Positions 20,787 to 37,906 of a stretch of DNA of 40,613 bases are shown one piece after another. This stretch comes from a phage. Position numbers and translations under genes: made by a program. Numbering within the stretch: position 1 is the stretch's first letter; each line of letters begins with the position of its first letter. The stretch lies in sequence record PZ019082.1; one strand, given 5' to 3'. The notes under the pieces are model-generated. The model had not been told where the DNA came from and did not search any database. It saw only the letters and a program-made list of their open reading frames with translations.

Positions 20787-20798
20787 AGAGGACTCTAT

Positions 20799-22826
20799 AT
20801 GTCAAGCGGATGCGGTGACGTTTTAAGCCTGGCGGACTTACAAACTGCCAAGAAACACCAGATTTTCGAAGCCGAGGTTATCACCGGTAAATCCGGCGGG
20901 GTTGCTGGTGGTGTCGATATCGAGTATGCGACCAATGCGGTTACGGGGCAGACCCAAAAGACGCTCCCAGCCGTGTTGCGTGATGCTGGTTTTAGGCCAG
21001 CATCGTTTACCTTTGAAACAGGCGGGACCGTAACTGATGCGGGTACTATTGTTTTATGGCCTGAGCCTGGTGGGGATGGGATGTGGTATTACTGGACAGG
21101 AAGTCTACCTAAAGTAATCCCTGCGTCATCATCCCCTATTGGAGACGCTAATTGGGTACCAATTGATATCAACGGTGCTGGTAACGACGAGGAGCTATGG
21201 CGAACTGTTTTGAGCTACGTGGGTATTAACCTAGTACCCGGCAGCTTCGAACGCGGTGGTACTTTAAACAATCTTCGCGACGCTATTTGGTCTGAAAAAG
21301 AGGCGAAAGCATACGTTAACTACAACGCACAATTGTCACCGGTGTTAATCCCATCTGGCAGTACACCGAACGACATAGTTGGTAGCGAAGATGTATCTAA
21401 ATTCGTAGGTCATGGGGTAAACATAATTTCATCACCCCGTAAAATGCGTCTGTCGGAGGTAATAGACTTTGGTTCATCTAATGCCCTCGATACCGGTGTA
21501 GACCGTGCGCAATTTAATGGTTTTTCTAAGACTACAAATACCACGGTAGCCGTCGGGGCGACTACGGTAGACTGTGCGCTTTATGTAGACCCTGCATGGT
21601 ACCAACTCCCCGGCGGTAGCTCCGGCGGTGTATACCCGCAAAAAGTACAGATAAGAAACACATCGGTGGTATGCGACGCCCCCGCAATCGGGCAAGCTGG
21701 CGTTTTTGTGGAGCAAGGTGGGTTTTTTAATTTCGAAAAAATGGATATTTATGACTTCACTAACGCCATCTGGTTAAAGGACGCCTGGATTACAACAATC
21801 AGAAAAGTTGTCTCTAACGGTCGTCTTAGAATAGAAAGCGGTACGTCAATAAAGGTTGAACAATGCTCATTCGGCGGTGCGTCAACTAAATTTTCAGCCA
21901 ACAACGGCGGTATCTACTTCACAGGGGTATCCTATAGCCACATAGATAACTGTACTAGTGACGGAGGGGCGTTAGCTCCATACAAATTTAATGGGTGTAA
22001 TGCCATTAAATTGACCGCATGCGGCTGCGAGGAGACAGGCTCATCTGATGCAAACGAGGGTAAAGCCCTGGCATTCGAGAGCAACAACCTTAACATTATA
22101 GTGGAGGGGTTTACTAACCGGCAGTTAGCACACGCCACCAAACCTGTAGCGTCATTTATATCTAACAATAAGGTTACATTCCGTAATTGCGTGTTCTCGC
22201 AGACAGGAACCAGCCTGTCTAACAGAGATTTTTATATTGCTGAAAACGGTAATGTGATAAATGTTATTGATTGCCAATTCAGCAACGATTCTCTCGATAG
22301 CCCTAGAATTAAATTCGAAAACGGCGTAACAACATCATCCGTCTATGTAACGGTAAACGGCAGAACATCAAGATACTATTCAAAGGGGGACGGGAAAACA
22401 TACCGCGCCCGATTATACGACCAGGAAGGCTCTGACGCTAACGGTTCCTTCATCAAACACTGGAACGGTACAAAGACATGCCGTCATGCTTTCAGCGCTG
22501 CACTTTTTACGGGTAACTCTAGCCAAGAGACAGTATCTGGCGTGACGATATATAAGTCTAATGGAGTGGCTTGGACGTTCCCGGATGGTGGTTTCTCCAC
22601 ACAACCCGTAATAACGGCTCAGATTTTATCAACGGGCGGGGCTGCGCCTGCGCTAACACAGGTCAATATCGACTCCACGGGTTTCGGTACTACATCCGCA
22701 GGCTCTTTTTTCCTTTCCGGGCTTAAATCATTTGCTTCTGGCGCCGGAGGTATATCCGCGGCGGTGCGTGTTATGGTAACTGCGTCCGGGACGTGGACTA
22801 ACGAGGAAGACGTTACCCCAGCCTAG
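20799..22826 (+). CDS. tailspike / receptor-binding protein
   Basis: 675 aa, RBS AGAGGA; last structural gene; Gly/Ser/Thr/Asn-rich repetitive beta-type sequence; followed by strong terminator. Confidence 0.6.
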   Translation: MSSGCGDVLSLADLQTAKKHQIFEAEVITGKSGGVAGGVDIEYATNAVTGQTQKTLPAVLRDAGFRPASFTFETGGTVTDAGTIVLWPEPGGDGMWYYWTGSLPKVIPASSSPIGDANWVPIDINGAGNDEELWRTVLSYVGINLVPGSFERGGTLNNLRDAIWSEKEAKAYVNYNAQLSPVLIPSGSTPNDIVGSEDVSKFVGHGVNIISSPRKMRLSEVIDFGSSNALDTGVDRAQFNGFSKTTNTTVAVGATTVDCALYVDPAWYQLPGGSSGGVYPQKVQIRNTSVVCDAPAIGQAGVFVEQGGFFNFEKMDIYDFTNAIWLKDAWITTIRKVVSNGRLRIESGTSIKVEQCSFGGASTKFSANNGGIYFTGVSYSHIDNCTSDGGALAPYKFNGCNAIKLTACGCEETGSSDANEGKALAFESNNLNIIVEGFTNRQLAHATKPVASFISNNKVTFRNCVFSQTGTSLSNRDFYIAENGNVINVIDCQFSNDSLDSPRIKFENGVTTSSVYVTVNGRTSRYYSKGDGKTYRARLYDQEGSDANGSFIKHWNGTKTCRHAFSAALFTGNSSQETVSGVTIYKSNGVAWTFPDGGFSTQPVITAQILSTGGAAPALTQVNIDSTGFGTTSAGSFFLSGLKSFASGAGGISAAVRVMVTASGTWTNEEDVTPA

Positions 22827-22840
22827 TTGACCTAAAACTA

Positions 22841-22863
22841 AGGCCCCAAACGGGGCCTTTTCT
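22841..22863 (+). terminator. rho-independent terminator
   Basis: GGCCCC-AAAC-GGGGCC hairpin followed by TTTT. Confidence 0.75.
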
Positions 22864-23001
22864 CTACTCTTCTGCTAACTTCTCCAGTACAAACGCCAGT
22901 TGCGCATTAGCGGCGTCTCTTTGCTGCCGTAGTCGTAGAACCTCTTCTTCGAGTTCCTTGATACGTTTTTGCAATGCTGGAATCGGCGCTACGATGTTCA
23001 T
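22864..23001 (-). CDS. small coiled-coil protein (45 aa)
   Basis: Not in ORF track; ATGA overlap with HNH stop; RBS GGAG 9 nt upstream; heptad-like KELEEEVLRLRQQRD. Confidence 0.3.
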   Translation of the reverse strand: MNIVAPIPALQKRIKELEEEVLRLRQQRDAANAQLAFVLEKLAEE

Positions 23002-23489
23002 GCGGTTTCTCCGTGGTTTTCATGAAATCCGTAAGCAGCTTCCGCGGCTTTACGCGCGGCAACAGCTTCGTTAAAATCATCAAACCTTCCAATAGTTTTT
23101 GTCTTTCTAAATTTGGTTATCTGCACCAACCACTTGCACCGCTCTTTGTCAAATGACACCCCTACCGCCCCAGACCTATTACGCCCAGTAGCCAGCCTGT
23201 TCATAGCGTTTTCTTGCTTAGTAACTACTCTTAAATTTGCGAGCCTGTTATCCGCGCGATTATGATTCTGGTGGTCTATTTCCATGCCGTCTGGTATAGG
23301 GCCATTGAACATTTCCCATATGACTCGGTGCGCGCGGTAGATAACTCCATTGTAGCGAAACTGAATGTAGCCGAACTTGTTTAGTGTTCCCGCTACCGCA
23401 CCTTTAGCAACATTTTTAGCGGGTTTTATGATCCATATCAGATTTCCAGTCTCTGGTTCATACCGTAGGACATTCTTCCAGATAAACAT
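22998..23489 (-). CDS. HNH endonuclease
   Basis: Motif EIDHQNHNRADNRLANLRVVTKQEN; TAATG overlap with upstream helicase stop. Confidence 0.8.
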   Translation of the reverse strand: MFIWKNVLRYEPETGNLIWIIKPAKNVAKGAVAGTLNKFGYIQFRYNGVIYRAHRVIWEMFNGPIPDGMEIDHQNHNRADNRLANLRVVTKQENAMNRLATGRNRSGAVGVSFDKERCKWLVQITKFRKTKTIGRFDDFNEAVAARKAAEAAYGFHENHGETA

Positions 23490-24910
23490 TATCGTTTCCT
23501 TCTCTTCATATAATTAAGTAGTTCGTCCTGTACAGACCTTTTCTCGTCTGTACGCGCGGCGACAACTTCATCAAGAGTATTTCGGGCTATTATTTGATAA
23601 ATGAATACAGACCGTTTGTATCCAGATTGCATCTGCCTTACCGGGCCTATACGCTCGATAACCTGCAGATAATGTTCCAGGTTCCACCCCTGACTAATAA
23701 ATGCCATGTGGTGTCCGCCATGTTGTAGCGACAGCCCGTGGCCCGCAGAAGCTGGGTGTATCAGGAGCATAGGTATCTCACCGCGGTTCCACGCTTCCAT
23801 CTGCTTATTGCCCTTAGCACCTTTTGCAAATGCCTGTGCTTGGGGGAATCGCTTAAGGATGCGCTCCAGTTCGTGCTTGAACTGATAGGCGACCAGTAAC
23901 GGCGCACCCTGTAACTCCTCAACAATTGACTCAAGCGCATCCAGTTTCGTGTCGTGCACTTTCTCCCATTCTTTGGTTGCTTCGCCGTCTTCGCCCGTCA
24001 CATACACAGCACCGGAAGCAATCTGCAAGCACTTAGCCGTTTTAGCGGCGGCGTTGGCGGCCTGCACCTCCCCACTCTCCAGTTCCGCGATTAACTTTTT
24101 CTCCATGTCGTCGTACGCCTGACGCGCTTTCTTCGGCAGGTCGATTTCAACCGGTACAATAATCGGCGCTTCACAACCAAACCACTCGGCGGGGTCGATG
24201 GTCAGGCTGATGTCTTTCATCTTCTGATGAATCTCATTATCGGCACCAGGTCGCGCGTGATATTCACGCGCCATAGCCGACTTACCTTTCTGTACCGAGT
24301 TAAACCAGCGGTCGGTGAATGCTGTGTACGATGAACCGAGTCGCTCACCGGCGTCGATAAACCAGTTCTGACCCCACAAGTCTTTGAGGCCGTTTGGCGA
24401 CGGCGTACCAGTCAGGTTGATGAAACGCCTAACCTTACCGAACGCCACTTTACTAAGCGCCTTTGCTCGCTTGCTTCCGCCAGAACGGCTACGGAATGAT
24501 TTAAGCTTCGTGCTTTCATCAGCAACAATAACGGTAAAAGGCCAGTCGTCTTTGCCGTAGTAGTCAATCAGCCACTCGATAACCTCGTAGTTGGTGCATA
24601 CCACGTTAGCGTCTGACTCCAGAGCCGCGATGCGGCGCTTCTCCGAACCTGTTGCATCGGCGACACTCAGACACGGGAAACCCCACTTAGTTTGTTCTGC
24701 GGGCCACGTACCAGACGCAACGCGCAACGGGGCAAGGATTAACACGCGGTCCTCTTCGGTAAGCTGCCCGTTGCGAAACAGTCGGTTGAGCACCCACATA
24801 GTAGAGGAGGTTTTACCCCCTCCCATGCCGCACCAGATATTACAGCGAGGGTGTTGCAACATGAACGAAGTCATGAGCTTCTGGTATTCACGCCTTTGAA
24901 ACTTACTCAT
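23489..24910 (-). CDS. SNF2/DEAD-like superfamily 2 helicase
   Basis: Walker A GMGGGKTSS, Walker B VIVADEST, motif III LTGTPSPNG. Confidence 0.8.
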   Translation of the reverse strand: MSKFQRREYQKLMTSFMLQHPRCNIWCGMGGGKTSSTMWVLNRLFRNGQLTEEDRVLILAPLRVASGTWPAEQTKWGFPCLSVADATGSEKRRIAALESDANVVCTNYEVIEWLIDYYGKDDWPFTVIVADESTKLKSFRSRSGGSKRAKALSKVAFGKVRRFINLTGTPSPNGLKDLWGQNWFIDAGERLGSSYTAFTDRWFNSVQKGKSAMAREYHARPGADNEIHQKMKDISLTIDPAEWFGCEAPIIVPVEIDLPKKARQAYDDMEKKLIAELESGEVQAANAAAKTAKCLQIASGAVYVTGEDGEATKEWEKVHDTKLDALESIVEELQGAPLLVAYQFKHELERILKRFPQAQAFAKGAKGNKQMEAWNRGEIPMLLIHPASAGHGLSLQHGGHHMAFISQGWNLEHYLQVIERIGPVRQMQSGYKRSVFIYQIIARNTLDEVVAARTDEKRSVQDELLNYMKRRKR

Positions 24911-25098
24911 TTTGCCACCAGAACTAACTCTTTACGTCCGAACGCCGTAACGTTACCGGTTACATCTTCAATAACCAGTTTACCGTTAGACTCGACGAAC
25001 ACCGTATCAACGGCAACAGGGCGACGGGTCTTAACGTTGAAAATCAGGTCACCAGGTACGATGTCACGTGCTGGTTTGCGGTCATATTCGTGTTTCAT
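24907..25098 (-). CDS. hypothetical protein (63 aa)
   Basis: ATGA overlap with helicase start; RBS AAGGA; preceded by promoter-like element 25132-25160. Confidence 0.45.
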   Translation of the reverse strand: MKHEYDRKPARDIVPGDLIFNVKTRRPVAVDTVFVESNGKLVIEDVTGNVTAFGRKELVLVAK

Positions 25099-25128
25099 TT
25101 CTCAATTCCTTATATTGTTGGTGTAGGG

Positions 25129-25413
25129 CTAACTATAATAGTTAGCTATTAGGTCGTCAACCTGTTTAAACGAACCAACGACAAAAACATTCGCGCCACG
25201 TTTACGCATCCGCGCGTGTTCACGTAGCTGGTGCGGGTCTGGCTTCGTGTTTTCGTCTTTCTTAACCTCGACGAACCAGACTATGCCGCCGGGGAGAATT
25301 ACCAGCAGGTCAGGAGCGCCTGAGCGCCCCTCGTAAGACAGCTTACGAACGAGGCCACCAATGGCCTCGAACATCTCTTTTGCGTATTTCTGAATCTTGC
25401 CTTCCGGGGTCAT
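25129..25413 (-). CDS. VRR-NUC domain nuclease
   Basis: PD-(D/E)XK-like motif PDLLV ... FVEVKK; 94 aa. Confidence 0.65.
   Translation of the reverse strand: MTPEGKIQKYAKEMFEAIGGLVRKLSYEGRSGAPDLLVILPGGIVWFVEVKKDENTKPDPHQLREHARMRKRGANVFVVGSFKQVDDLIANYYS
25132..25160 (-). promoter_or_regulatory. sigma70-like promoter TTGACG-N17-TATAGTTAG
   Basis: Minus-strand TTGACGacctaatagctaactatTATAGTTAG; lies within the 3-prime end of the VRR-NUC coding sequence; same architecture as 28687-28715 and 30806-30834. Confidence 0.5.
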
Positions 25414-25562
25414 GAGCGCAGAACCCAGGTTATAAACGCTCCTCCGAGAACGGCAACGCCAACAAACTTAAAGAACAGGCCGTAACAGAACATCGCAGCT
25501 ATTCCCGCGCCGAGTAACAGTGCGAGCATGGTTACTATCGCCCAAAATACAAACATTGTCAT
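25410..25562 (-). CDS. small hydrophobic membrane protein (50 aa)
   Basis: Not in ORF track; RBS GAGGGG 10 nt upstream; ATGA overlap with VRR-NUC start; sequence almost entirely hydrophobic. Confidence 0.35.
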   Translation of the reverse strand: MTMFVFWAIVTMLALLLGAGIAAMFCYGLFFKFVGVAVLGGAFITWVLRS

Positions 25563-25644
25563 AATACGCACCCCTCGCGTTTCGTGTGCTCAATACCGCA
25601 GCGCGGACAGATTCGGCAGTCTTCTTCGTAGAACCAGTAAATTT

Positions 25645-25776
25645 TCATTCCAGCACCCACAGATAAATTGCGATGAACATTCCCAATACCGCAGCCATCA
25701 TGCCGTATTGGCCCTCGTGACAATAGACACCGGCGGCAAATCCTGCCAGTAACGCGATAATCAGTTTACTTAGCAT
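25645..25776 (-). CDS. small hydrophobic membrane protein (43 aa)
   Basis: Not in ORF track; ATG overlaps last codons of DNA polymerase gene; RBS GGAG; hydrophobic throughout. Confidence 0.35.
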   Translation of the reverse strand: MLSKLIIALLAGFAAGVYCHEGQYGMMAAVLGMFIAIYLWVLE

Positions 25777-27946
25777 AGCGCTTCATCTCCGCACCTTCTG
25801 CCACAAGAGGGAACCCTTCGGCCCATTCCGGTAATTCGCACATTAATTTTTCCAGTTCAGCCACCGTGTACTCAGGTGTGTCTGGAGTTTCACACACTAA
25901 TTCATCGTGTACCGAAAGCACGATGGGGTACCCGCCGCCCTCAACATTAATCATCGCGTATGCGAGTAAATCACGGCACAGCGCCTGAGTGCAGTTTTCC
26001 ACCAGTTTACCGGAGTAGGTGTACTGGAAGCCCCACTGACGGGTTAACTGGTTTTCGCCCTGGTACTTGATGCGCACGTTAGTGGACACCTTCCCGTCTT
26101 CGTCTGCCTCTTTAGACACACTTAACCCGACGCCCGGATAAGACATAACGCGGCCCGACGGCAACGTCATGCGCAGCCACCAACCAGCGACTTTGTTGCC
26201 GTTGTTATCTGTTTCTACGTTACGCGAAAACTTAACTCCCCGCGGACCTGCAGTGAACTCTTTACCTGGGTTGCGGATAGCCGCCATAGCTGCGTCTTCA
26301 ATATCACGCCAGAATGCTACTGTTTCAGGGTGAGACTCCCGCCACATGCGCTTGATAGCGTCACAGGTGCGCCACACTTTCTTATCAAGAATATATGACG
26401 GCCGGTCGTCTTTTTCACCAGGACGTGGTTGTCGCTTGGCTTCCTGAATACGTGCCCACTCATATCCACGTGCGGTAGCGGTCCAGATGTGGTCGGGGAA
26501 AGTACCGTCCATTGTTTTAGCCATATCAACCAGGTCAAGGCCGAGGTTCTTGGCGAACTGTACGAATGCGCCGACACCGCCCGCGTAGCCAAGACCCAAT
26601 TCACAGGCTTTACCAATCTGGCGTAAGTCTTTACGTTCTTTCTTAATGTAATCCGGATCCATGCCAAACATCTTACCCGCGGTTACACAGTAAATATCCA
26701 GCCCAGCGCGGAACGTATCGAGCGCGGTTTCTTCTCCCGCCAGCCACGCAAGCCCACGGCCTTCAACGTTAGAGTAATCGGCAACGACAAACTTATGCCC
26801 TGCTTCCGGGATAATGCAGCTACGAACTGTCGATGCCGTCAGCTTGGCTACGTCAAATCGGCGGTGAGCACGACCCTTAAGTAACGCTGAAATGCCTTTA
26901 TCCAGTTCATCATCATGATAGTACCCGCGGGCCAGGTTCTGCGGCTGAAAGCCTTTACCCGCCCATCGCAAAGTACGTTTTGCCCCGCCGTACTGTAAAC
27001 AACCGCGGCGTCGGTCGTCCGACGAGCGGCCCAACAGCAGCGGGTTATATTTCGTTGATGCGGTGGATGCGGCCCCGAGGCGCATTTCGATAATCGTGCG
27101 AGCGTCGTCCGGTAAATCATCATCCGCCAGCAGGTCGTTAAGCGTCGACTTCTGCGCATTGTGGATGCGGTGCGCTGGCGCAAGTTCACGCAGAATCGGA
27201 AGGAAGTCTTTACCGGTAAGTGAGCCGCCGTATTTGCGTTGGGCTTCTTCCTGTAACTGTGCCTTGTGCTTCTCCACGGCTTCAATCGCTGCTTCTGCCA
27301 GCGCTACGTCAACCTTAAACCCGCGGTCGTTGATTAACTGGTCCAGTTCCAGTACACGGTCTTCAAACTCGGAGTTACCCCACCGCGGCAGCTTATGGAA
27401 GACTTCCCGCATCGCAGTGATGTCGCTCACGGCGTACTTGATGAACAGCGCCCACTCATCGGGATGTGTTTCAGCGGTGTAGCGGCGGATTTTGTAGTTC
27501 TTAGGTGTCGGTTTAGAAAAACGCTGAATCAGCGCCTTGCCGCGTTTGTCTTTTGCGTTGTCCGCAGACACGCCCAGCACTTCGCACAATGCGTCAAGTG
27601 AACCCGGCAGCGCGTGGCGAAACGCCCAAATCATCGTATCAATGGTGTTGCTTACCGGAATATCAAAGTCCCAGCAGTGTTTCATGATGAGCCTGTCGAA
27701 CATTGAGCCGTTGTGCCACACCATCTTAATGCGGCTGTTTGGCTTAACCAGACGGCGTAAGGCGCGGTGCAAATCCCCCGGCATGTCGCTGCCGTCTGTG
27801 CAATCCCATACCTGCACAGGCTCGTCGTCAAAAGCGTATGTGCAGATAAGCACTTCGGTAGTTGGGTGCTCTGCGTAAGCGTATGAACCGACTTTCTTTA
27901 AATCGGCTTCGGAGAATGTTTCAAAGTCTAAGAACAGGTAACTCAT
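25766..27946 (-). CDS. family A DNA polymerase with N-terminal 3-prime to 5-prime exonuclease domain
   Basis: Exo I FLDFETFS; motif A DYSNVEGR; motif B K..LGLGYAGG; motif C VHDE. Confidence 0.8.
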   Translation of the reverse strand: MSYLFLDFETFSEADLKKVGSYAYAEHPTTEVLICTYAFDDEPVQVWDCTDGSDMPGDLHRALRRLVKPNSRIKMVWHNGSMFDRLIMKHCWDFDIPVSNTIDTMIWAFRHALPGSLDALCEVLGVSADNAKDKRGKALIQRFSKPTPKNYKIRRYTAETHPDEWALFIKYAVSDITAMREVFHKLPRWGNSEFEDRVLELDQLINDRGFKVDVALAEAAIEAVEKHKAQLQEEAQRKYGGSLTGKDFLPILRELAPAHRIHNAQKSTLNDLLADDDLPDDARTIIEMRLGAASTASTKYNPLLLGRSSDDRRRGCLQYGGAKRTLRWAGKGFQPQNLARGYYHDDELDKGISALLKGRAHRRFDVAKLTASTVRSCIIPEAGHKFVVADYSNVEGRGLAWLAGEETALDTFRAGLDIYCVTAGKMFGMDPDYIKKERKDLRQIGKACELGLGYAGGVGAFVQFAKNLGLDLVDMAKTMDGTFPDHIWTATARGYEWARIQEAKRQPRPGEKDDRPSYILDKKVWRTCDAIKRMWRESHPETVAFWRDIEDAAMAAIRNPGKEFTAGPRGVKFSRNVETDNNGNKVAGWWLRMTLPSGRVMSYPGVGLSVSKEADEDGKVSTNVRIKYQGENQLTRQWGFQYTYSGKLVENCTQALCRDLLAYAMINVEGGGYPIVLSVHDELVCETPDTPEYTVAELEKLMCELPEWAEGFPLVAEGAEMKRYAK

Positions 27947-27963
27947 TATTTTCGACCCTTAGT

Positions 27964-27984
27964 AAAAAGGCCCAATGAAGGGCC
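27964..27984 (-). terminator. terminator-like hairpin (minus strand)
   Basis: GGCCC-TTCATT-GGGCC followed by TTTTT on minus strand, between DUF2815-like gene and DNA polymerase. Confidence 0.45.
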
Positions 27985-28005
27985 TTAGTTAAATTGATTC
28001 AGATA

Positions 28006-28632
28006 TTAGCGGCGACGACGTTCGCGGCGCGGTGCTTCATCTTCTTCGTCGTCTTCCAGGTCATTGACGCTTGCGGCGACTTTAGAACCACCAAACGCCT
28101 TACCTTCGCCGACGTATTTAATTCCCAGCAGTTTAACACCGAGGACTTTATATTTCTGGCTGAACCAGATTTCAACGCTTACGTTAGCGACGCATCCGCT
28201 GTAAACCTGTTCGCCTTCAATCTGTTCACCGTCTACATTGAAGTCCTGTTCTACCTGAGTCTCACCTTTTTTAGAGGTTATAATCAGCGGCTGTTTCTGC
28301 GCCTTCGCTTTGAAGTAGAAGCCTTCCGGGAAGTCTTCAAAGGGATTGTCACGCTCGGCAATGTCTTTAACAGCACATTTATCCATGTGCTTACCTTCGC
28401 CGTAGTTGGACCTCATCCACTTCTCTGCGGCGGCAGCACCTAACGCTTCTTCAACTACGGCGTAAACAGTGTCGTAAAGCGCATCGATTTGCGCATGGTC
28501 TGGCGGCAGGATAATAGTCGCGCTGTACTGGCCTTTAGTAATTGAGCCATCATCGTTTTCGCGGTCTTTTTCGCGTTCGAATACGTTAACCCAAGCAGTG
28601 TTTACTTTACGCAGATTTAATGTCAGTCCCAT
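28006..28632 (-). CDS. putative ssDNA-binding-like protein (DUF2815-like) with acidic/basic C-terminal tail
   Basis: 208 aa; position between DUF2800-like nuclease and PolA; C-terminus DLEDDEEDEAPRRERRRR. Confidence 0.35.
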   Translation of the reverse strand: MGLTLNLRKVNTAWVNVFEREKDRENDDGSITKGQYSATIILPPDHAQIDALYDTVYAVVEEALGAAAAEKWMRSNYGEGKHMDKCAVKDIAERDNPFEDFPEGFYFKAKAQKQPLIITSKKGETQVEQDFNVDGEQIEGEQVYSGCVANVSVEIWFSQKYKVLGVKLLGIKYVGEGKAFGGSKVAASVNDLEDDEEDEAPRRERRRR

Positions 28633-28686
28633 CTTGATTTCTCGCTTTTAAGTTTACTCCGGGAAGCTGCCCGGCCAGTGATTAGA

Positions 28687-28715
28687 ACTATAATAGCTAA
28701 CTATTCAGGTGTCAA
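28687..28715 (-). promoter_or_regulatory. sigma70 consensus-like promoter TTGACA-N17-TATAGT
   Basis: Minus-strand TTGACAcctgaatagttagctatTATAGTTC in intergenic region upstream of 28632 start. Confidence 0.6.
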
Positions 28716-28719
28716 CACT

Positions 28720-29961
28720 TTATTCTAAATCTTCTCCACTAACCTGATTCCACTCAGGCCGTTTGTCGTCTGCCGTTGCAACGCATGGCGCTCCCGGCTT
28801 ACGGGTAATGAAGTCTTTCAGTTCTTCTTCCGGTATTACTTTAACAGCTTCGGTCGGTGTCATTAGCACTTCTTTAGTTAGCTTGTCGCCGTAGAGTTCT
28901 GTTACTTTCTCCGCGTCTTTCCACGCACGATTACTGGGACGGCCTTCAACCAGTTTGTACCCAGGCACTTTCTTACCTGAATGCAAAGCGGCGGCCATCG
29001 CTTTTTCAACCTTGTCGATGTGCTGGCGCAACAGCGGCAACTTCTCATACTCAGCTACGAGTTGCTCAGGCGTAAGTTCCAGCGCAAAGTCGTCCTCCAG
29101 TTCTTCCGCCAGTACCGCGTTAACGGTTTTTGTACGCGCGGCGCACTGTTCTGAGAACCGACACCACTGACAACCATCTGCAGAAGGCTTGAAGTCCGAC
29201 GCTTTCAGGTTCTTCTTGCCGCGGGAATAAGCATCAAGAGCCAACAGCGCGCGTTTATGTGCGAACTTAGCGAACAGTTCCAGACCTTCAACCGAGATGT
29301 CCCACTCCGACGCACCGCCAGCATACGGCTGGAAGATTACCAGACGAACGGTTGTTATGTTATAACGTCTCTTGAGTCGGCGATAAACACCGAGAGCGTA
29401 AAGCATAAGCTGCTTGTTTTCTTTCGCTTCGACGCGATGTCGCCCGGTTTTAAGGTCCCCAATAATGAGCATGTGCTCGTCGGTGTTAGCCAGTTCCTGA
29501 ACGGCAACAAGGTCAGCGGTCCCGAACGTCTCAACGCCTTCATACCCAGGATGCAATACCTCAGTGAGATTGACGCGCATTTCCAGCTTGGCGTAAGTCG
29601 CAACGTCGATAATCGCTTTGCAGTAGTCGGTATACTTGCGCACCTGCTCAATCATGTCAGCCGTAATCAGTACCGCGCCTTTCACCGGGCTGATTAGAGC
29701 CTTAATCTGACCTTTGCCCTCATCCAACACGTAAGCACCAACTTCACGCTCTAATGGAAACGCAGTGCCTTTGATGTACTGGTTAAGGTGCATTTCCGCT
29801 ATGGTGTGCATAGTCGTACCTAATACTGCGGCCTTACCGGACGTGTTAGGAATATCTTTTTCACAGGCCAGTGATGCAGCACAGCTTAGCCACTTTTTAG
29901 CGCCAGACGGCGACAGCAGGGCGTGCACATCGTTATTGCCGCCGCGTTCTTTTAAAATCAT
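28720..29961 (-). CDS. PD-(D/E)XK nuclease with Fe-S cluster cysteines (DUF2800 / Cas4-like)
   Basis: N-terminal HALLSPSGAKKWLSC and C-terminal CQWCRFSEQC cysteine pattern; ATG at 29961 with ATGA coupling (track start GTG 29976). Confidence 0.55.
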   Translation of the reverse strand: MILKERGGNNDVHALLSPSGAKKWLSCAASLACEKDIPNTSGKAAVLGTTMHTIAEMHLNQYIKGTAFPLEREVGAYVLDEGKGQIKALISPVKGAVLITADMIEQVRKYTDYCKAIIDVATYAKLEMRVNLTEVLHPGYEGVETFGTADLVAVQELANTDEHMLIIGDLKTGRHRVEAKENKQLMLYALGVYRRLKRRYNITTVRLVIFQPYAGGASEWDISVEGLELFAKFAHKRALLALDAYSRGKKNLKASDFKPSADGCQWCRFSEQCAARTKTVNAVLAEELEDDFALELTPEQLVAEYEKLPLLRQHIDKVEKAMAAALHSGKKVPGYKLVEGRPSNRAWKDAEKVTELYGDKLTKEVLMTPTEAVKVIPEEELKDFITRKPGAPCVATADDKRPEWNQVSGEDLE

Positions 29962-30230
29962 ACCCTGTTCTCCCACTGGTCGATTAAATGTCGTGTCTTA
30001 TGCCCACAATGCATAGCCCACCCATACATCGACTCAAAAACATAAAAGTCAGGCTTGGCGAAAGTCGTGCGCTTAATCTGTGACACGTGACGGCCTAAAG
30101 ATATAGGCCGCGGTACTTTGCCTAAGTACGCCATCTCTTCCATCTGGTGCGCACCGGACGGCGCACGCAACAGCCATAGTGCCTCCGTGTTGTCCCGCCT
30201 GTCTACGGCCCGGTAGAGTTGGTAAATCAT
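29958..30230 (-). CDS. hypothetical protein (90 aa)
   Basis: RBS GAGGG; coupled to downstream nuclease gene; contains HCGHKTRH. Confidence 0.45.
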   Translation of the reverse strand: MIYQLYRAVDRRDNTEALWLLRAPSGAHQMEEMAYLGKVPRPISLGRHVSQIKRTTFAKPDFYVFESMYGWAMHCGHKTRHLIDQWENRV

Positions 30231-30250
30231 AATTCCGACCCTCAGTTAAA

Positions 30251-30266
30251 GCGGCCCGAAGGCCGC
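30251..30266 (-). terminator. weak terminator-like hairpin
   Basis: GCGGCC-CGAA-GGCCGC palindrome; only a short T-run on minus strand. Confidence 0.3.
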
Positions 30267-30273
30267 GAGATAG

Positions 30274-30774
30274 TTAGTCTTCTTCGAAATACTTGTTCTT
30301 GATTGCCGTCAGGCGTTCAAGGTATTCAGCAAGGTCTTCATCTTTAATCGCGGCAATCTTCATCTTCTTACCGGTGAACTCCTCCAGCAGTTCATCAGAA
30401 TCATCACACGCGGCATCGCTCGGACCTTCGTTAATGGCGTCGTCGATAGCCTGAATCTGGTCACGCAGAGACTGGTAATCGACTTCTTCTTTCTCTTCTT
30501 CCGGCTCTGGTGTCGGCTCCTCTACTTTAGCTTTACGCGGCTTGCGTTTTGGCTTCTCTTCTTCAACCGGTTTAGTATCAACTACGTCTTCACCTTCGAC
30601 CGGGATTTCTTTTGATCCTTCTTCTGCACACTTGGCTACTGCTTCTTTGGTATACGCTACCGTCTCTACTTCCAGAGGCGCGGAAACCTGAACAACTTGT
30701 TTCACGCTGTTCGCAGCAATCAGTTCATGAGCAACTACGAAACGTTCCAGTAATACTAAGAATTTCTCTAACAT
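30274..30774 (-). CDS. highly acidic early protein (166 aa), function unknown
   Basis: Strong RBS GAGGAGAGA; first gene after promoter 30806-30834; Glu/Asp-rich with one KPKRKPRKAK patch. Confidence 0.5.
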   Translation of the reverse strand: MLEKFLVLLERFVVAHELIAANSVKQVVQVSAPLEVETVAYTKEAVAKCAEEGSKEIPVEGEDVVDTKPVEEEKPKRKPRKAKVEEPTPEPEEEKEEVDYQSLRDQIQAIDDAINEGPSDAACDDSDELLEEFTGKKMKIAAIKDEDLAEYLERLTAIKNKYFEED

Positions 30775-30805
30775 TTGTTTCTCTCCTCTCGTTTGGTATG
30801 GGCTA

Positions 30806-30834
30806 ACTATAATAGCGAACTATTCACATGTCAA
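30806..30834 (-). promoter_or_regulatory. sigma70 consensus promoter TTGACA-N17-TATAGTTAGCCC
   Basis: Minus-strand TTGACAtgtgaatagttcgctatTATAGT followed by conserved leader AAACGAGAGGAGAGA. Confidence 0.65.
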
Positions 30835-30838
30835 TGGG

Positions 30839-30867
30839 CTTTTCTAAAATAATTAATATGGTACTAT
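30839..30867 (+). promoter_or_regulatory. putative promoter for XRE regulator gene (-10 TACTAT, weak -35)
   Basis: gTACTATTCACATATCAA upstream of RBS AAGGAG and ATG 30899; AT-rich upstream region. Confidence 0.35.
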
Positions 30868-30898
30868 TCACATATCAACTGACTAAGGAGTAATTGAC

Positions 30899-31114
30899 AT
30901 GCAACCATCTGAACTAGGCATTCGTGTAGAACAACGCCGTAAAGAACTCGGCATCTCCCAGCGCCGTCTGGCTGTCCTGACCGGGGTTTCCCAGGGCGCG
31001 ATTAACCAGCTTGCGCTCGGGGTAACTCAGGACGTCCGCCCGGCGACGCTGTTTAAACTGGCGGAAGTGCTGCAAGTAGACGCCAAGTGGCTGGCGTTAG
31101 GTGAAGGGGCTTAA
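30899..31114 (+). CDS. XRE-family helix-turn-helix transcriptional regulator (71 aa)
   Basis: HTH segment ISQRRLAVLTGVSQGAINQLALG; RBS AAGGAG; followed by terminator. Confidence 0.7.
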   Translation: MQPSELGIRVEQRRKELGISQRRLAVLTGVSQGAINQLALGVTQDVRPATLFKLAEVLQVDAKWLALGEGA

Positions 31115-31129
31115 CGCCCCTTTCTTTTT
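31104..31129 (+). terminator. rho-independent terminator
   Basis: GGGGC-TTAAC-GCCCC hairpin followed by TTTCTTTTT. Confidence 0.6.
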
Positions 31130-31131
31130 AT

Positions 31132-33402
31132 CTATTCCAAATCCTCCTCTGTCACCACCAGCATTTCATTCGGTTCGTATATTGTCTTCGGAATCTTGTT
31201 ATCGTTTATACCCCACGGCAATCGGTATTGCTTAGGGATAGGCCTGTTGTTGTTATCCAGACCTGAGACGATAACCCCGGCCTCGTGCATCTCTTCCAGT
31301 TTCTTTCGAAGGTCGTTATTAGCGTTAATCGGTACGCCGTAACTATCTTCTTTCGCTGCTTTGACGATAGCCGACATGGAAAACCCCCGCTTGTCGTCAC
31401 CCTGCTCCTGCAATTTACCTAACGCGTAAATAACCGTAGCTTCTTTGGTATCCAGTTTCTCGAACTGACCTACCTTTTCTTTAACAGCCGCTTTACCTTC
31501 CTTTGTCAGCCCTTCTTCCCGCTCTTTCTCCTCGTCGGTCTTGAATGGTTCGAAACCCCACGGCATCAGCACAAGCGCCTTGTGTGGTTCAGGCAGGTCG
31601 AGGTTTACGATTGTGCCGTATTCCTCCGTGCTTCCGAGGAACTCAACCGCGCGGTACTCTTTCGGTGGTGGCGCTTCACGGAACTGTACCGACTCCAGTA
31701 CCATGCCAACCGTCTTCTGTTGAGGCCCGTGCTTAAATTTCGAGTGGTATACATTTATTTGACGTTCGGTCGCGCGTTCGATTGTTAGTTCCACGTCGAC
31801 ACCAGCGTACAGCGCCCCACTGCCACGGGCTTTCTTTCCACCTTTCGGCGTATGGTGGACAACGCCTACCGCGGCTTTAGTTGCGTCGCGTACTTCTTTC
31901 AGGATGGCGATAACTTTACCCATGCCGATTGTCGTTGATGAACTGTTCTCGTCGAACTTATCAATCGTCAGGGCCAGCGTCTGGTTGAGGGTGTCGAACG
32001 CAACCATACCAATAGGCTCGTCGCCCGCAGTTTCGCGCATTAACTTAATCAGGCTTTTCAGTTTCCCGACTTCGCCCATGTCGATAACATGTACATAATC
32101 TTTACCTTCCTCGCCATATTTAGCCGCTAGTGCGTCGATACGTGTGCGCGTAGCTGCGCCACCTTCACCGTCAATATAGAAATGGTGGCAACGCTGGGTA
32201 TCTGCCCCGGCAAATCTGTATCCGGCGGCGCTAAGGTACATCATCCCCAGCGTATAAAACGATTTGTACGTTCCAGACTCCCCGACGATATCCCAGATGC
32301 AGTCTGTCGGCATGTATCCTTCTACGACGAAATCAGCCTTTACCGGTTCCGGTAACTCGTCCTCCTCTGAGTCCTCGTCGTCTTCCAGGTCGTCCAGACT
32401 GCATGAAACTGACTCACGCGCACCCCAGCCGATGGCCTCGGCGACTTCACTGAATGGAAGACCAGTCGCATCACACGCATACTTCCACACCTCTTTCGGT
32501 GACATGCCCTCGGTTGCCGTGATGTCTGTGTCGTGAATCATGGTTACGTTAGGTGCTTCGTACCCCTCGCGCGGGAAGCACAGCAGGAAGTCGTCCGGGC
32601 GCGGGGTCGGGTCGCTGTAGTTTTCTGCGTGTTCCGGTGTGGCGGGCATCTTAAGTCCACGCGGCGTCATGATGCCGCCGTATTCGAACGCCAGTGCCTC
32701 GAACGCATCAGTAAATGCCGTGCGCAGTTCTTCTGGTATCTGGTAATCCGATGCGCTGCTCACCTCGTAATCCGGGATGCCTTCCAGTAACTCGTCCGGG
32801 TCAATCAGGTCGTTACGGCGCGACCAGATAACGGTAGAGCCGACAGGCGGCAGGTACATCGGCTGCGACAGAGTGAACCCGCTGTGGTCCGCACCCATGC
32901 CTTTGAAGAAGTGCTCCAGCAATCCATGACGAACACGGATGATGCCACCACCTTCGACCGGGCGGCCCAGCGGCATGACGACGCGAAAGCGCGGTGACTC
33001 ATCGGTATGTGATGCCGTGGTGTAGAGGCACATAGCCAGGCGGCTACGCTTAACCAATCGCACCGCCTCCTGATACTCGTCAGGTGTTGCACTGTCGAAG
33101 TCCAGATACGCCAGCGACGATTTGTTTACAGACGCATCGCAGCGATAGAAGAAGCCTTTACGCGCCTGCTTAAAGTCCCCAGTTTCCGGGTCTTTTACGG
33201 TGCTGTGCGTTGAGTCGCACGCGGCGGTGATATACCCCGGCGCGGTCTTCGGGTTAATTCCGTCGCGAACAGCATCGAGCGGCTGGATTAACTCTTTCAG
33301 GTCGTCCAGTGTTGCCGTGTGTGTGGTTCTGACGTTTATATCCTTTTTCTCCGCCCGCGCGTTGCGACGAGACCACGAGTAGGATAAAATTACATCGGAC
33401 AT
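31132..33402 (-). CDS. putative replicative primase/helicase-like protein (756 aa)
   Basis: Central P-loop-like GESGTYKS and RecA-type layout; size and position in replication module; RBS GAAGGAAA; family assignment uncertain. Confidence 0.5.
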   Translation of the reverse strand: MSDVILSYSWSRRNARAEKKDINVRTTHTATLDDLKELIQPLDAVRDGINPKTAPGYITAACDSTHSTVKDPETGDFKQARKGFFYRCDASVNKSSLAYLDFDSATPDEYQEAVRLVKRSRLAMCLYTTASHTDESPRFRVVMPLGRPVEGGGIIRVRHGLLEHFFKGMGADHSGFTLSQPMYLPPVGSTVIWSRRNDLIDPDELLEGIPDYEVSSASDYQIPEELRTAFTDAFEALAFEYGGIMTPRGLKMPATPEHAENYSDPTPRPDDFLLCFPREGYEAPNVTMIHDTDITATEGMSPKEVWKYACDATGLPFSEVAEAIGWGARESVSCSLDDLEDDEDSEEDELPEPVKADFVVEGYMPTDCIWDIVGESGTYKSFYTLGMMYLSAAGYRFAGADTQRCHHFYIDGEGGAATRTRIDALAAKYGEEGKDYVHVIDMGEVGKLKSLIKLMRETAGDEPIGMVAFDTLNQTLALTIDKFDENSSSTTIGMGKVIAILKEVRDATKAAVGVVHHTPKGGKKARGSGALYAGVDVELTIERATERQINVYHSKFKHGPQQKTVGMVLESVQFREAPPPKEYRAVEFLGSTEEYGTIVNLDLPEPHKALVLMPWGFEPFKTDEEKEREEGLTKEGKAAVKEKVGQFEKLDTKEATVIYALGKLQEQGDDKRGFSMSAIVKAAKEDSYGVPINANNDLRKKLEEMHEAGVIVSGLDNNNRPIPKQYRLPWGINDNKIPKTIYEPNEMLVVTEEDLE

Positions 33403-33460
33403 GTTGTATTTCCTTCAGCAAGTAATTTGGCCTCGGCGTTCACCGCGTCGGGGCTTTCTT

Positions 33461-33736
33461 TTATTCCAGGTCGCGGGAGATATTACCCTCGGGGACCAAC
33501 ACTTTTCCAATACTTCTCGCTTTCCCGTTAAGCGGCGTTGCTCTTGTTGCCCGATAAAACTTTCCTTTATTAAGAACCTCTCCGTGTTGCTCAAGAACAC
33601 TTAAAGCATGTTTAATCGGATTTACACCGTAATTATCTAACCGGTATCTACGAAGCCCGTCTAGTGTAAAAGCGCCGTTCGCCTCGGTCAGTCTGCGTGC
33701 GCACATTAATACGTGTTTCTGGAATTTAGTTAGCAT
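33461..33736 (-). CDS. hypothetical protein (91 aa)
   Basis: RBS AAGGAG 10 nt upstream; overlaps end of upstream regulator gene. Confidence 0.45.
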   Translation of the reverse strand: MLTKFQKHVLMCARRLTEANGAFTLDGLRRYRLDNYGVNPIKHALSVLEQHGEVLNKGKFYRATRATPLNGKARSIGKVLVPEGNISRDLE

Positions 33737-33905
33737 CTTTTACGTTCTCCTTAATCCAAGCCTCCACGGTAGCGCGGTCAAATGTGCCTGGCTGCCGGTA
33801 GCCGTTAATAACCCGGCAACACTCGGGGAACTTACCTGACCGAAGCCAGCGATTAAGTGTCATAGGGGAAACTCCGATTAAGTCTGCTACTTCTTTCTGT
33901 GTCAT
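33726..33905 (-). CDS. AlpA-like / excisionase-like HTH DNA-binding protein
   Basis: MTQKEVADLIGVSPMTLNRWLRSGKFPE matches AlpA-type HTH pattern; ATG at 33905 with RBS AGAGGG (track start TTG 33935). Confidence 0.55.
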   Translation of the reverse strand: MTQKEVADLIGVSPMTLNRWLRSGKFPECCRVINGYRQPGTFDRATVEAWIKENVKDAN

Positions 33906-33934
33906 TTTACACACCCTCTTTATCAAGTGAAACA

Positions 33935-33963
33935 ACTATAACACCTACAATAACTAAACACAA
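33935..33963 (-). promoter_or_regulatory. putative promoter TTGTGT-N17-TATAGT for minus-strand regulatory/primase operon
   Basis: Minus-strand motif 29 nt upstream of ATG 33905; divergent from plus promoter 33968-33995. Confidence 0.4.
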
Positions 33964-33967
33964 CCTA

Positions 33968-33995
33968 TTGACAAAATAAAATGTAGCTGTAAAAT
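33968..33995 (+). promoter_or_regulatory. putative promoter TTGACA-N16-TAAAAT
   Basis: Consensus -35 and good -10 on plus strand, about 370 nt upstream of the first plus-strand early gene. Confidence 0.4.
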
Positions 33996-34200
33996 CAACG
34001 TATCGAAGGACCTTAGTTCAGAATTACTTAGAAACATTATTCTTAAGTCTCTGGTGACCAAAGCCCGGCCCATAAAGGACGGGCGCTGAGAGTCACTTCG
34101 ACAACGTTAGTATCTAAGTTTCCTCAAAGTAACAGCAAGTAGCAAGAAAGCCCCCGTCTATTTAAATTTTGCCATATGGTATAAATCATTGATTTGCAAG

Positions 34201-34215
34201 CTCACTCACTCACTC
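34201..34215. repeat. short tandem repeat (CTCA)n, about 3.75 units
   Basis: ctcactcactcactc directly visible. Confidence 0.6.
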
Positions 34216-34300
34216 TTGGTGCCTTCGGCACCACGTTCGTTTCGTTTCGCTCGCTACCCCCATTAAACGAAAGAATCACAACGGCAACGTAACTATTCTC

Positions 34301-34329
34301 TTGCACACCCCAACATAATAGGATACTAT
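34301..34329 (+). promoter_or_regulatory. early promoter TTGCAC-N17-TACTAT
   Basis: Followed by TCACTTATCGG and leader AACGAGACAGAGGAG; 40-bp element repeated on minus strand at 12851-12890. Confidence 0.6.
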
Positions 34330-34363
34330 TCACTTATCGGAACGAGACAGAGGAGTGAGGGTT

Positions 34364-34549
34364 ATGTTTAAGAAGGGTCAGTTGGTGAGAATTTTGGAGA
34401 CAGGGGGGTTAGCGGTTATTTCATTCGCACACCACAAAGAATGTAGTGTTTATTTTGCAAAATCTTTAACGGGGTCCTATCTCACCGTGTTATACGCACA
34501 AGATATGAAACTCATCGGCAACAATTTTAAATTCAAAGGGGCGAAGTGA
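34364..34549 (+). CDS. hypothetical early protein (61 aa)
   Basis: ATG with RBS AGGAG 8 nt upstream (track ORF starts at GTG 34355). Confidence 0.5.
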   Translation: MFKKGQLVRILETGGLAVISFAHHKECSVYFAKSLTGSYLTVLYAQDMKLIGNNFKFKGAK

Positions 34550-34752
34550 TGGAAGAATTATTTGAAGAACTGAAACATCATGAGTTCGAGGAGATATATT
34601 TTGTAGCTGAACGCTACGAGGTGCATTTAGTGGACGGGGTTACAATTATTACAATGGATAGCCAGCAAATGCTAAATAGCTTACGGGCTATACGAACGGC
34701 ATCTAATCATGATGCTCGTGCCGACGACTCCGAGGGAGGTTGCCGTGAATAA
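34549..34752 (+). CDS. hypothetical early protein (67 aa)
   Basis: TGATG overlap with upstream stop. Confidence 0.45.
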   Translation: MEELFEELKHHEFEEIYFVAERYEVHLVDGVTIITMDSQQMLNSLRAIRTASNHDARADDSEGGCRE

Positions 34753-34812
34753 TTACCCGTTCATTTTAATTGTCAGCGCCGTTTATGTGGTGCACGCGTT
34801 GCGGGGGTTGGT

Positions 34813-35007
34813 ATGAGTCCATATAACGAATCCCGCTTACGCCGTCTGATTGGTGGTCTGCGCGCCGCCGAGTTTGTTGTTGAATGTTGGGAGAAGGTGC
34901 AATATGCCCCATGGAAGTCGTGGCATTTGGCTCATGCTAAGGAGGTAGCACAGTACCGTGAGTACAAGTTAAACAGTTTCCTTAAACACCACGGGGTTGA
35001 GTTATGA
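34813..35007 (+). CDS. hypothetical early protein (64 aa)
   Basis: ORF with G-rich RBS. Confidence 0.45.
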   Translation: MSPYNESRLRRLIGGLRAAEFVVECWEKVQYAPWKSWHLAHAKEVAQYREYKLNSFLKHHGVEL

Positions 35008-35153
35008 GAGAAGCATTTGAACGGTGGGCCGTAGTCGAGGGTCTGCCGGTTAACAAGGGTTCAAAGAAAGAGTACCTGAACGTTAAGACGCGTCTCGCGT
35101 GGCGGGCGTGGAAAGCTGGTGTGCAAGCCCGAGCTGGTGTAACAGGTCAATAG
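35004..35153 (+). CDS. hypothetical small protein (49 aa)
   Basis: Not in ORF track; ATGA overlap with upstream stop. Confidence 0.35.
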   Translation: MREAFERWAVVEGLPVNKGSKKEYLNVKTRLAWRAWKAGVQARAGVTGQ

Positions 35154-35208
35154 GTTACTATTTGGCTTAGTGACTTACGCTGCTACACAGCAGCGTACAA
35201 CTTTAACT

Positions 35209-35281
35209 TAGTGTCGTCAAAAAGCGACACTTCCCTAAGACACTGTTGGGTCAGGAATAAAGTGTCTCCAGTTAGCGACAC
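35209..35281. promoter_or_regulatory. array of AGTGTC / GACACT half-sites forming two inverted repeats plus an extra half-site
   Basis: AGTGTCG-N8-CGACACT (35209-35230), AGACACT-N16-AGTGTCT (35237-35266), CGACACT (35275-35281); just upstream of promoter 35301. Confidence 0.45.
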
Positions 35282-35300
35282 TTTGCACCAATAAAATTTA

Positions 35301-35329
35301 CTTGCACACTAAGATAGAATAGGCTACTA
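35301..35329 (+). promoter_or_regulatory. early promoter TTGCAC-N17-TACTAT
   Basis: Same architecture as 34301-34329; followed by TCATTTACAC and leader AAACGAGAGGAGAGA. Confidence 0.6.
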
Positions 35330-35361
35330 TTCATTTACACAAACGAGAGGAGAGACAGAAG

Positions 35362-35481
35362 ATGGGTTGGTACGGTAGCTGGACATTAGGCGAACTGGTA
35401 GACGCTTACGAAATAATGGGTAGCACTTCGGTGTGCGACGGCGACACTAAAGCGATAACAATGGGGGTTGATGATGAGTAA
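35362..35481 (+). CDS. small early peptide (39 aa)
   Basis: Not in ORF track; ATG directly after conserved leader AAACGAGAGGAGAGACAGAAG. Confidence 0.35.
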   Translation: MGWYGSWTLGELVDAYEIMGSTSVCDGDTKAITMGVDDE

Positions 35482-35992
35482 CAAAAACGAAGTATTCGAG
35501 TGCCTGATTGACCAACTACGGCAGCAGGTAAATAACAACCAGTGTGAAGACCTGGCGCATGAGGTGCTGTCACTTAAGAATCAGTTACGTGATGCTTCGG
35601 CGCTGGTGGCCGAGTTACAGCGAGAGCCGCAACATCAGATTGACCTGGCGTCGGGTGTGTATAGATGGTCTACCGCACATTTCGACGAGAAAGGTAAAGT
35701 CACCAAGGTCGAGAGTGGGGTTAAGACAGAGCAATCCGGTTGCCGTAAAGAAGACGTGCAGGAATGTGAGCACGATTGGGTTGAGTTTCACGGTTTGTTT
35801 ATTGCAGAGGGGGACCTGCGAAATGAACCTGGGTATACCTTCTGCCGTAAATGCGGGCTGAAAGAATACTCCCGTAAATGTGAACATGAATGGTCCATGG
35901 TAACTGGCGACGGCCCAAGTTTCTATGAGTGCGATGTGTGCGGAGCCCGTAGTAAAGATTTACCGTACGACTTACGGTGGTTGGCACTATGA
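35471..35992 (+). CDS. cysteine-rich protein with two zinc-ribbon-like CEH[DE]W ... C..CG modules
   Basis: ECEHDWVEF...FCRKCG and KCEHEWSMV...CDVCG; track ORF starts at TTG 35468. Confidence 0.5.
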   Translation: MMSNKNEVFECLIDQLRQQVNNNQCEDLAHEVLSLKNQLRDASALVAELQREPQHQIDLASGVYRWSTAHFDEKGKVTKVESGVKTEQSGCRKEDVQECEHDWVEFHGLFIAEGDLRNEPGYTFCRKCGLKEYSRKCEHEWSMVTGDGPSFYECDVCGARSKDLPYDLRWLAL

Positions 35993-36192: not shown

Positions 36193-36194
36193 TT

Positions 36195-36670: not shown

Positions 36671-36745
36671 ACCGTTATTAAGATAATTCCTAACCGTGCT
36701 ATCCTCCAGTTACTGCATACTTAATACGCACCTGGAGGATTCATC

Positions 36746-37782: not shown

Positions 37783-37816
37783 TGGAAGAGAACTGGGACG
37801 TATAGTACAATTGCAG

Positions 37817-37902: not shown

Positions 37903-37906
37903 ACCA

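Follow-up and report, generated by a model that had tools for sequence, protein, structure and literature searches.

How does a phage drive a block of replication genes that all point the same way, and what could hold its several promoters under common control? This question is raised by positions 25132–30834 of PZ019082.1, a stretch of phage DNA of 40,613 bp (the whole of it is called the window below), in which three promoter-like elements, named here P1, P2 and P3, sit in a leftward (minus-strand) replication array, with a gene for a small Cro-like protein running the other way. The first letters of the window are the ATG of a terminase small-subunit gene and its end lies just upstream of the same gene, so that it looks like a whole phage genome; it is a complete Kagunavirus genome (Guernseyvirinae). 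Between positions 24000 and 32000 it shares about 90% identity with the Kagunavirus phages K1G, K1H, K1ind and Bas70–76, and 80–90% identity with several hundred Salmonella Jerseyvirus genomes. The reading that we favour, with a probability of about 0.6 for the model as a whole, is that P1–P3 are host sigma-70 promoters that carry the operator of the Cro-like protein, one of them (P3) being written into the gene of a VRR-NUC nuclease.

Direct inspection of the sequence confirmed three minus-strand sites, each with a 17-nt spacer, at the positions given by the first-pass annotation. P1 (30834–30806) reads TTGACA TGTGAATAGTTCGCTAT TATAGT, has a predicted start near 30799 and lies upstream of the gene for an acidic protein of 166 amino acids (aa; ATG at 30774). 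P2 (28715–28687) reads TTGACA CCTGAATAGTTAGCTAT TATAGT; its -35 begins 4 nt past the stop codon of an exonuclease gene (28722–28720), and downstream of it lies the gene for a gp2.5-like single-stranded DNA-binding protein (SSB; PF10991, the former DUF2815; ATG at 28632). P3 (25160–25132) reads TTGACG ACCTAATAGCTAACTAT TATAGT, occupies codons 85–94 of the VRR-NUC gene and precedes a 63-aa open reading frame (ORF; ATG at 25098) and the gene for a SNF2-type helicase. The labels first attached to these downstream genes proved correct, and the consensus first proposed for the promoters held in part: the near-consensus -35 TTGACA is present in P1 and P2, P3 having TTGACG; the -10 TATAGTTAG is shared by P1 and P3, P2 reading TATAGTTCT; and the spacer consensus AATAG(T/C)T(C/A)GCTAT describes P1 and P2, P3 being one base off (AATAGCTAACTAT).

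The number of such sites is not random. With at most one mismatch, TTGAC(A/G)-N17-TATAGT has three matches, compared with 0.10 expected, and 0/100 shuffles reached three. P1, P2 and P3 agree with the sigma-70 hexamers at 11, 11 and 10 of 12 positions, and a scan of the 20-kb region 20700–40613 placed all three among its five best sigma-70-like matches. All have near-consensus hexamers, A2 and T6 of the -10, a spacer of 17 ± 1 bp and a downstream gene with a ribosome-binding site (RBS), a Shine-Dalgarno sequence and an ATG being found 25–55 nt downstream of each. P1, P2 and P3 all recur at orthologous places among 45 related viral contigs (Kagunavirus and Jerseyvirus), and the hexamers, the 17–18 nt spacing and the leader with its Shine-Dalgarno sequence and ATG are retained in about 40 genomes of the two genera. 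In Jerseyvirus/Cornellvirus-like contigs P1 reads TTGCAT-17-TATAGT, P2 TTGACA-17-TATATT and P3 TTGATA-17-TATATT, the last still at the gene end. From these features we infer promoter activity, which we regard as highly likely; P1–P3 are very probably ordinary host-type promoters, already predicted in relatives. Indeed, in the GenBank record of phage Jersey (KF148055.1) the P2 ortholog (32925–32953) and the P3 ortholog, inside the VRR-NUC gene Jersey_39 (29238–29266), are annotated as promoters, on the basis of similarity to TTGACA(N15–18)TATAAT and not of experiment. That record leaves the P1 ortholog unannotated and does not mention the palindrome described below.

The three promoters had also been thought to split the replication genes into separate units. 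A minus-strand terminator scan found no credible intrinsic terminator upstream of P2 or P3: the sole strong one of the leftward array (22859–22840, minus strand) lies after an HNH endonuclease gene, at the array end, and the other terminator-like matches are weak 5-bp stems at chance frequency (29 versus 21.5 ± 4.9 expected). Separate units are unsupported because no terminators precede P2 or P3, and it seems best to regard the three elements as internal promoters in series, with additive effect along one co-directional array, and not as marking off insulated units. Host sigma-70 RNA polymerase would read them one after the other along the array: P1 would start it, beyond the oppositely oriented Cro-like gene, P2 would add transcripts for SSB and the DNA polymerase, and P3 would add transcripts for the 63-aa ORF, the helicase and the HNH endonuclease.

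What had been noted as related spacers is a 14-bp palindrome, AATAG-N4-CTATT, which the first-pass annotation overlooked. It occupies positions 30811–30824 in P1 (AATAGTTCGCTATT), 28692–28705 in P2 and 25137–25150 in P3. The window contains seven perfect copies, compared with 0.01–0.03 expected, and when all 5-mer palindromes with gaps of 0–8 were scanned without bias, this one came out as by far the most over-represented. The perfect copies start at 12861, 25137 (P3), 28692 (P2), 30811 (P1), 34317, 35149 and 35318, and copies with one mismatch are found at 3344, 4972, 30855 and 38203. Six of the seven perfect copies overlap sigma-70-like core promoters. Counted against the -10, the palindrome has three registers: it covers -25 to -12 in P1–P3, -19 to -6 in a second promoter type that we call class B, to which three of the extra copies belong, and -22 to -9 in the Jersey_25 promoter. 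Both among the copies in the window and among orthologs, the arms are invariant and the centre is variable. Variation among orthologs falls mostly in the 4-bp centre and in the linker from the -35, the arms and the -10 being almost invariant; the spacer of P1 orthologs is 17 or 18 nt, the additional base lying between the -35 and the palindrome, so that the distance from the -35 to the palindrome is 4 or 5 nt and the distance from the palindrome to the -10 is constant. In Salmonella phage TS6 and Hafnia phage TS33, the P2 hexamers and their spacing are retained and the palindrome is absent, which shows that RNA polymerase does not need the palindrome. Serratia phage Tsm2 retains P2, P3 and one class B promoter, all with the palindrome, and Dhillonvirus SSL-2009a has neither the palindrome nor a homolog of the Cro-like protein. 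When viral contigs were scanned for TGAATAGNNNNCTATTAT, the matches listed were Kagunavirus contigs mixed with single chance matches.

Since the palindrome keeps its sequence while sliding relative to the hexamers, RNA polymerase does not contact it as part of the promoter; its behaviour is that of an independent binding site superimposed on core promoters. Its presence in P1–P3 and in at least four other sites points to a common DNA-binding regulator, and on this evidence we slightly favour the view that it is a protein-binding site. An action as RNA hairpin was rejected, as the predicted stability is only -2.5 kcal/mol and the element is located upstream of the predicted starts.

In the P3 copy the same bases are also codons. 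The VRR-NUC gene (25129–25413, minus strand) encodes a 94-aa nuclease that matches Pfam VRR_NUC and the PHROG endonuclease and Holliday junction resolvase families; its last ten codons hold P3, as had been proposed, and the TAG of TATAGTTAG is its stop codon. We compared 40 distinct VRR-NUC 3' ends. Mean diversity at third codon positions is 0.31 for codons 1–84 versus 0.13 for the last ten, the second lowest value of 85 sliding windows, so that the comparison with synonymous sites called for at first reading comes out in favour of the embedded element. Eight third positions coincide with specified bases of the P3 motif, and seven of them never vary. The positions of the tail that do vary are the free positions of the motif, and changes there are non-synonymous: D87 becomes T, K or A, A90 becomes E, and N91 becomes S, D, H or G. 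The stop codon itself shifts in several genomes (YYS*, YYSK.., YYSS..) while the DNA motif stays fixed. The motif also imposes minority codons (CTA, ATA, TAT, TAT), with a joint probability of about 0.004 given the codon usage of the genome. In TS6, TS33 and SSL-2009a, which are without P3, the tripeptide Q-V/I-D that spells TTGAC is retained, the tail reads ..ELVKELF instead, and the -10 is absent. The dual constraint, coding and regulatory, is therefore real, since motif bases are fixed at synonymous sites while amino acids change, and the DNA constraint outweighs the protein constraint in the VRR-NUC tail. Read in this way, P3 appears as a clean example of a regulatory motif overriding a protein C-terminus. 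Promoters within upstream coding sequence are known from E. coli ftsQAZ and from the class II and class III promoters of T7 that overlap gene ends; here as there, the promoter of the downstream genes lies in the 3' end of the ORF before them, and no terminator separates the two. The difference is that here, as the substitutions in 40 genomes show, the DNA motif prevails over both the residues and the stop position.

These observations bear on the most resistant of the alternatives, namely that P1–P3 are plain sigma-70 promoters and nothing more, that no protein binds the palindrome, and that the shared spacer comes from a duplicated cassette or from a DNA-shape preference of RNA polymerase. 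A duplicated cassette would fit the fact that P1 and P3 are similar well past the palindrome, through TATAGTTAGCCC..ACCAAAC, and the absence of a binder would fit the lack of a clean separation of lineages by the recognition helix of the Cro-like protein (see below). We nevertheless consider this explanation unlikely: across genera and across copies the arms do not change while the centre and the linker drift, the palindrome is found in three registers and once with no -35 whatever, the P2 hexamers do without it in TS6 and TS33, and in P3 it persists although it requires rare codons.

Which protein could bind the palindrome? Two ORFs of the window have clear helix-turn-helix (HTH) domains, a 71-aa HTH_3 protein and a 69-aa HTH_17 protein (33726–33935), and weak NinH-like and MarR-like matches are found at 39754–39990 and 40282–40503. 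The 71-aa protein (30899–31114, plus strand) is of the Cro/C1 type (Pfam HTH_3, E 1e-12), and its top matches among solved structures are phage 434 Cro and the N-terminal domain of the 434 repressor, over the full length, with E values of 7e-6 to 1e-5. The gene for it points away from P1, with 65 bp between it and the P1 -35, and is syntenic in every Guernseyvirinae genome examined, including those of Jersey (48% identity at the same position), Tsm2 (42%), TS6 (39%) and TS33 (37%); the last two, which are without the palindrome, have the most divergent Cro-like proteins (36–39% identity). A candidate promoter for this gene reads TTCACA-16-TAAAAT (30823–30850, plus strand; TTCACA at 30823–30828 and TAAAAT at 30845–30850) and interdigitates with P1 over positions 30806–30850, each -35 lying inside the spacer of the other and the predicted starts being about 58 bp apart, so that RNA polymerase is probably unable to occupy both promoters simultaneously. 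This candidate promoter is flanked by two palindromes, that of P1 and a copy with one mismatch (AATATGGTACTATT, 30855–30868) that covers its predicted start, with 44 bp between their centres.

434 Cro and repressor bind 14-bp dyad operators in which the outer bases are conserved and the centre is uncontacted. The likeness to this system lies in the following: a small HTH_3 protein of equal length with full-length similarity (E about 1e-5); 14-bp dyads with conserved outer bases and a variable centre, placed over core promoters as in 434 OR and OL; and more than one site at the divergent promoter of the regulator itself. The differences are that the half-site is AATAG here and ACAA in 434, that binding is here only predicted, that the sites are scattered over at least seven promoters here and clustered in two tripartite operators in 434, and that this phage is virulent, without an integrase or a long cI-type repressor. 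We therefore propose, tentatively, the 71-aa Cro-like protein as the binder. The palindrome would be the operator of a phage-encoded dimeric HTH protein, most likely this one, and its occupation would repress the early and replication promoters as the Cro-like protein accumulates; repression is the likelier outcome because the sites lie in promoter cores with optimal 17–18 bp spacers.

Several observations weigh against this proposal. The recognition helix (QGAINQ in the window, QSLITH in Jersey, QSAISH in TS6) does not track the palindrome, TS6 being as close to Jersey as Jersey is to the window, and no residues of this helix cleanly separate the lineages with the palindrome (Kagunavirus, Jerseyvirus, Tsm2) from those without it (TS6, TS33). 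The second palindrome, at the promoter of the Cro-like gene, is imperfect, a defect that is greater in Jerseyvirus, and the P1 ortholog of Tsm2 has only a degenerate palindrome. That binding would repress and not activate, we infer from position alone. Finally, a literature search on Guernseyvirinae found no start-site mapping, footprinting, binding or repressor studies; the single Kagunavirus RNA-seq paper found (K1B4, PMC12645636) gives coarse temporal classes and no 5'-end information.

The lack of covariation between recognition helix and palindrome would be in keeping with the palindrome being a real binding site for another protein, such as a host factor, the NinH-like 78-aa product of 39754–39990 or an unannotated early protein, possibly an activator. 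Several small early ORFs are without a recognisable family, and the phages with the palindrome have related hosts (Escherichia, Salmonella, Serratia), so that a shared host factor is possible; to our knowledge, none of the CRP, ArgR, Fur, Fis and LexA sites fits the palindrome. Yet the 14-bp dyad has the geometry expected for a 434-type HTH dimer, the Cro-like gene is the only strong HTH gene that is syntenic in all the genomes examined and it lies beside paired sites, and TS6 infects Salmonella yet is without the palindrome. An activator of the MerR type, acting from the spacer, was rejected, since it needs spacers of 19–20 bp and those found here are 17–18 bp long. The HTH_17 or excisionase-like protein (33726–33935) is an unlikely binder, because its gene is missing from Tsm2, which keeps the palindromes. 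Altogether, another binder seems to us somewhat more doubtful even than plain promoters.

A motif of this kind has been met before in Kagunavirus. In fBC-Eco01, PHIRE detected a 20-mer (tgAATAGTa-ccTATTat-T) in seven copies that were ascribed to a phage RNA polymerase (PMC9825357), and related 20-mers, also in seven copies, were reported for phage Golestan (PMC7203180). These are the same repeated motif as the palindrome of the window; neither paper remarks on its dyad symmetry, on its overlap with sigma-70 hexamers or on the neighbouring Cro-like gene. It is very improbable that an RNA polymerase or sigma factor encoded by the phage uses the 20-mer TGAATAGT-N3-CTATTAT as its promoter. Gene content contradicts this, the large ORFs and about 30 small ORFs scanned having yielded no polymerase or sigma domain, and so do the copies themselves, which occur in different registers and in both orientations relative to the downstream genes and coincide with good sigma-70 hexamers. 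All ORFs of more than 450 aa but one are matched by Pfam or by an annotated structural or replication counterpart in a relative, and the exception, a 466-aa ORF (15959–17359), lies among tail genes and is too short for a T7-type polymerase, which has about 880 aa. On the evidence of the sequence, the ascription made for fBC-Eco01 is wrong. The prediction of promoters at P2 and P3 is itself already known from the Jersey annotation and from the PHIRE 20-mer; what is likely to be new here is the 14-bp operator-like palindrome that most non-structural promoters have in common, together with its likeliest binder, the 434-Cro-like protein encoded beside P1.

The wider family of palindrome-bearing sites comprises, besides P1–P3, the class B promoters, with the consensus cTTGC(A/G)CAC-N8-AATAGGnTACTATTCA; they read TTGCAC-17-TACTAT, and a leader with Shine-Dalgarno sequence and ATG lies downstream. 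Two are on the plus strand: that at 34301–34330 has its palindrome (34317–34330) over the -10 and small plus-strand genes downstream (ATG at 34364), and its Jersey ortholog, an annotated promoter, has the consensus -35 TTGACA; that at 35302–35331 has its palindrome at 35318–35331 and an ATG at 35362. The third (12861–12890, minus strand) reads TTGCGC-17-TACTAT, has its palindrome at 12861–12874 and lies in a divergent intergenic region, with a gene start at 12818 (minus strand). A further promoter-like element, TTGACT-17-TATATT (38203–38236, plus strand), has a palindrome with one mismatch (38203–38216) over its -35, and its Jersey ortholog is annotated as a promoter. No -35 can be recognised for the perfect palindrome at 35149–35162, whose AATAG includes the stop codon TAG of a 49-aa ORF (35004–35153); from it extend about 130 nt of non-coding sequence with three hairpins (35149–35290), just ahead of the class B promoter at 35302. 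The copies with one mismatch at 3344–3357 and 4972–4985 lie just after terminator hairpins in the structural module, without a good -35, and one of them corresponds to the Golestan PHIRE site 'Before ORF3'. The best promoter match on the plus strand, TTGACA-16-TAAAAT (33968–33995), is followed by about 300 nt without a convincing ORF. The region 33968–34300, which may be a leader or a small RNA, contains a terminator-like hairpin (34217–34233), has a fold z-score of only -1.45 and has no Rfam match; an Rfam search over the whole window likewise gave zero matches.

TS6 (L085), which is without the palindrome, has a different dyad in its promoters. This dyad, TATTA-N6-TAATA, is found at 54, 872 and 29675 (three perfect copies versus 0.03 expected) and spans the spacer and the -10 (TAATAT), which suggests a lineage-specific counterpart of the putative operator of the window.

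In the order of their transcription, the genes of the array itself are as follows. The helicase-primase gene (31132–33402) comes first, ahead of the oppositely oriented Cro-like gene; after the acidic 166-aa gene come a 90-aa ORF and the DUF2800/PD-(D/E)XK exonuclease gene, after the SSB gene those of the family A DNA polymerase, small ORFs and VRR-NUC, and after VRR-NUC the 63-aa ORF, the SNF2-type helicase gene and the HNH endonuclease gene. The interval between P1 and the 166-aa gene is a gene-insertion hot spot right under a strong promoter: accessory ORFs that differ among relatives are inserted directly after the P1 leader and RBS, in loci L007, L009, L012, L015, L018, L020, L021, L029 and L032 and further in L034, L035, L039 and L042–L044. 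One of these inserts is HNH-endonuclease-like, the others are small ORFs without an assigned function, and a second RBS, AAATAAACAGGAGAACAAATAATG, stands behind each. The SSB mRNA leader contains a GC hairpin, CCGGG-loop-CCCGG (28659–28674, minus strand), about 7–22 nt downstream of the predicted P2 start. All Guernseyvirinae loci retain this hairpin, though the loop varies, and the swapped arms of Tsm2 (CCCGG..CCGGG) and the CGGGG..CCCCG of SSL-2009a have the look of compensatory changes; the hairpin may stabilise the mRNA or serve in autoregulation. The DNA polymerase gene of the window (25766–27946) is uninterrupted; that of several Jerseyvirus relatives aligns in two parts with a gap of about 900 bp, where an intein is annotated in phage Ent3.

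These findings leave general principles unchanged, a Cro-like circuit being of a well-known kind. Their practical side is that synonymous recoding or C-terminal tagging of VRR-NUC would destroy the promoter of the helicase operon, and that correcting the published 'phage RNA polymerase promoter' label helps annotation. Kagunavirus and Jerseyvirus phages are widely used in phage therapy, in biocontrol and as synthetic-biology chassis, and their transcription programme is uncharted. If the proposed reading is true, it provides engineers with strong promoters that are native to the phage and possibly switchable, and it maps compactly how the replication genes are first driven and later switched off through three promoters and a shared operator. 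For the family as a whole the picture, which we hold as tentatively as the identity of the binder, would be that of virulent phages that run most of their early and replication transcription through one 434-Cro-like protein, with operators in at least seven sigma-70 promoter cores, one of them imposed on the C-terminus of a nuclease, and with the interdigitated P1 and Cro-gene promoters as a timing switch.

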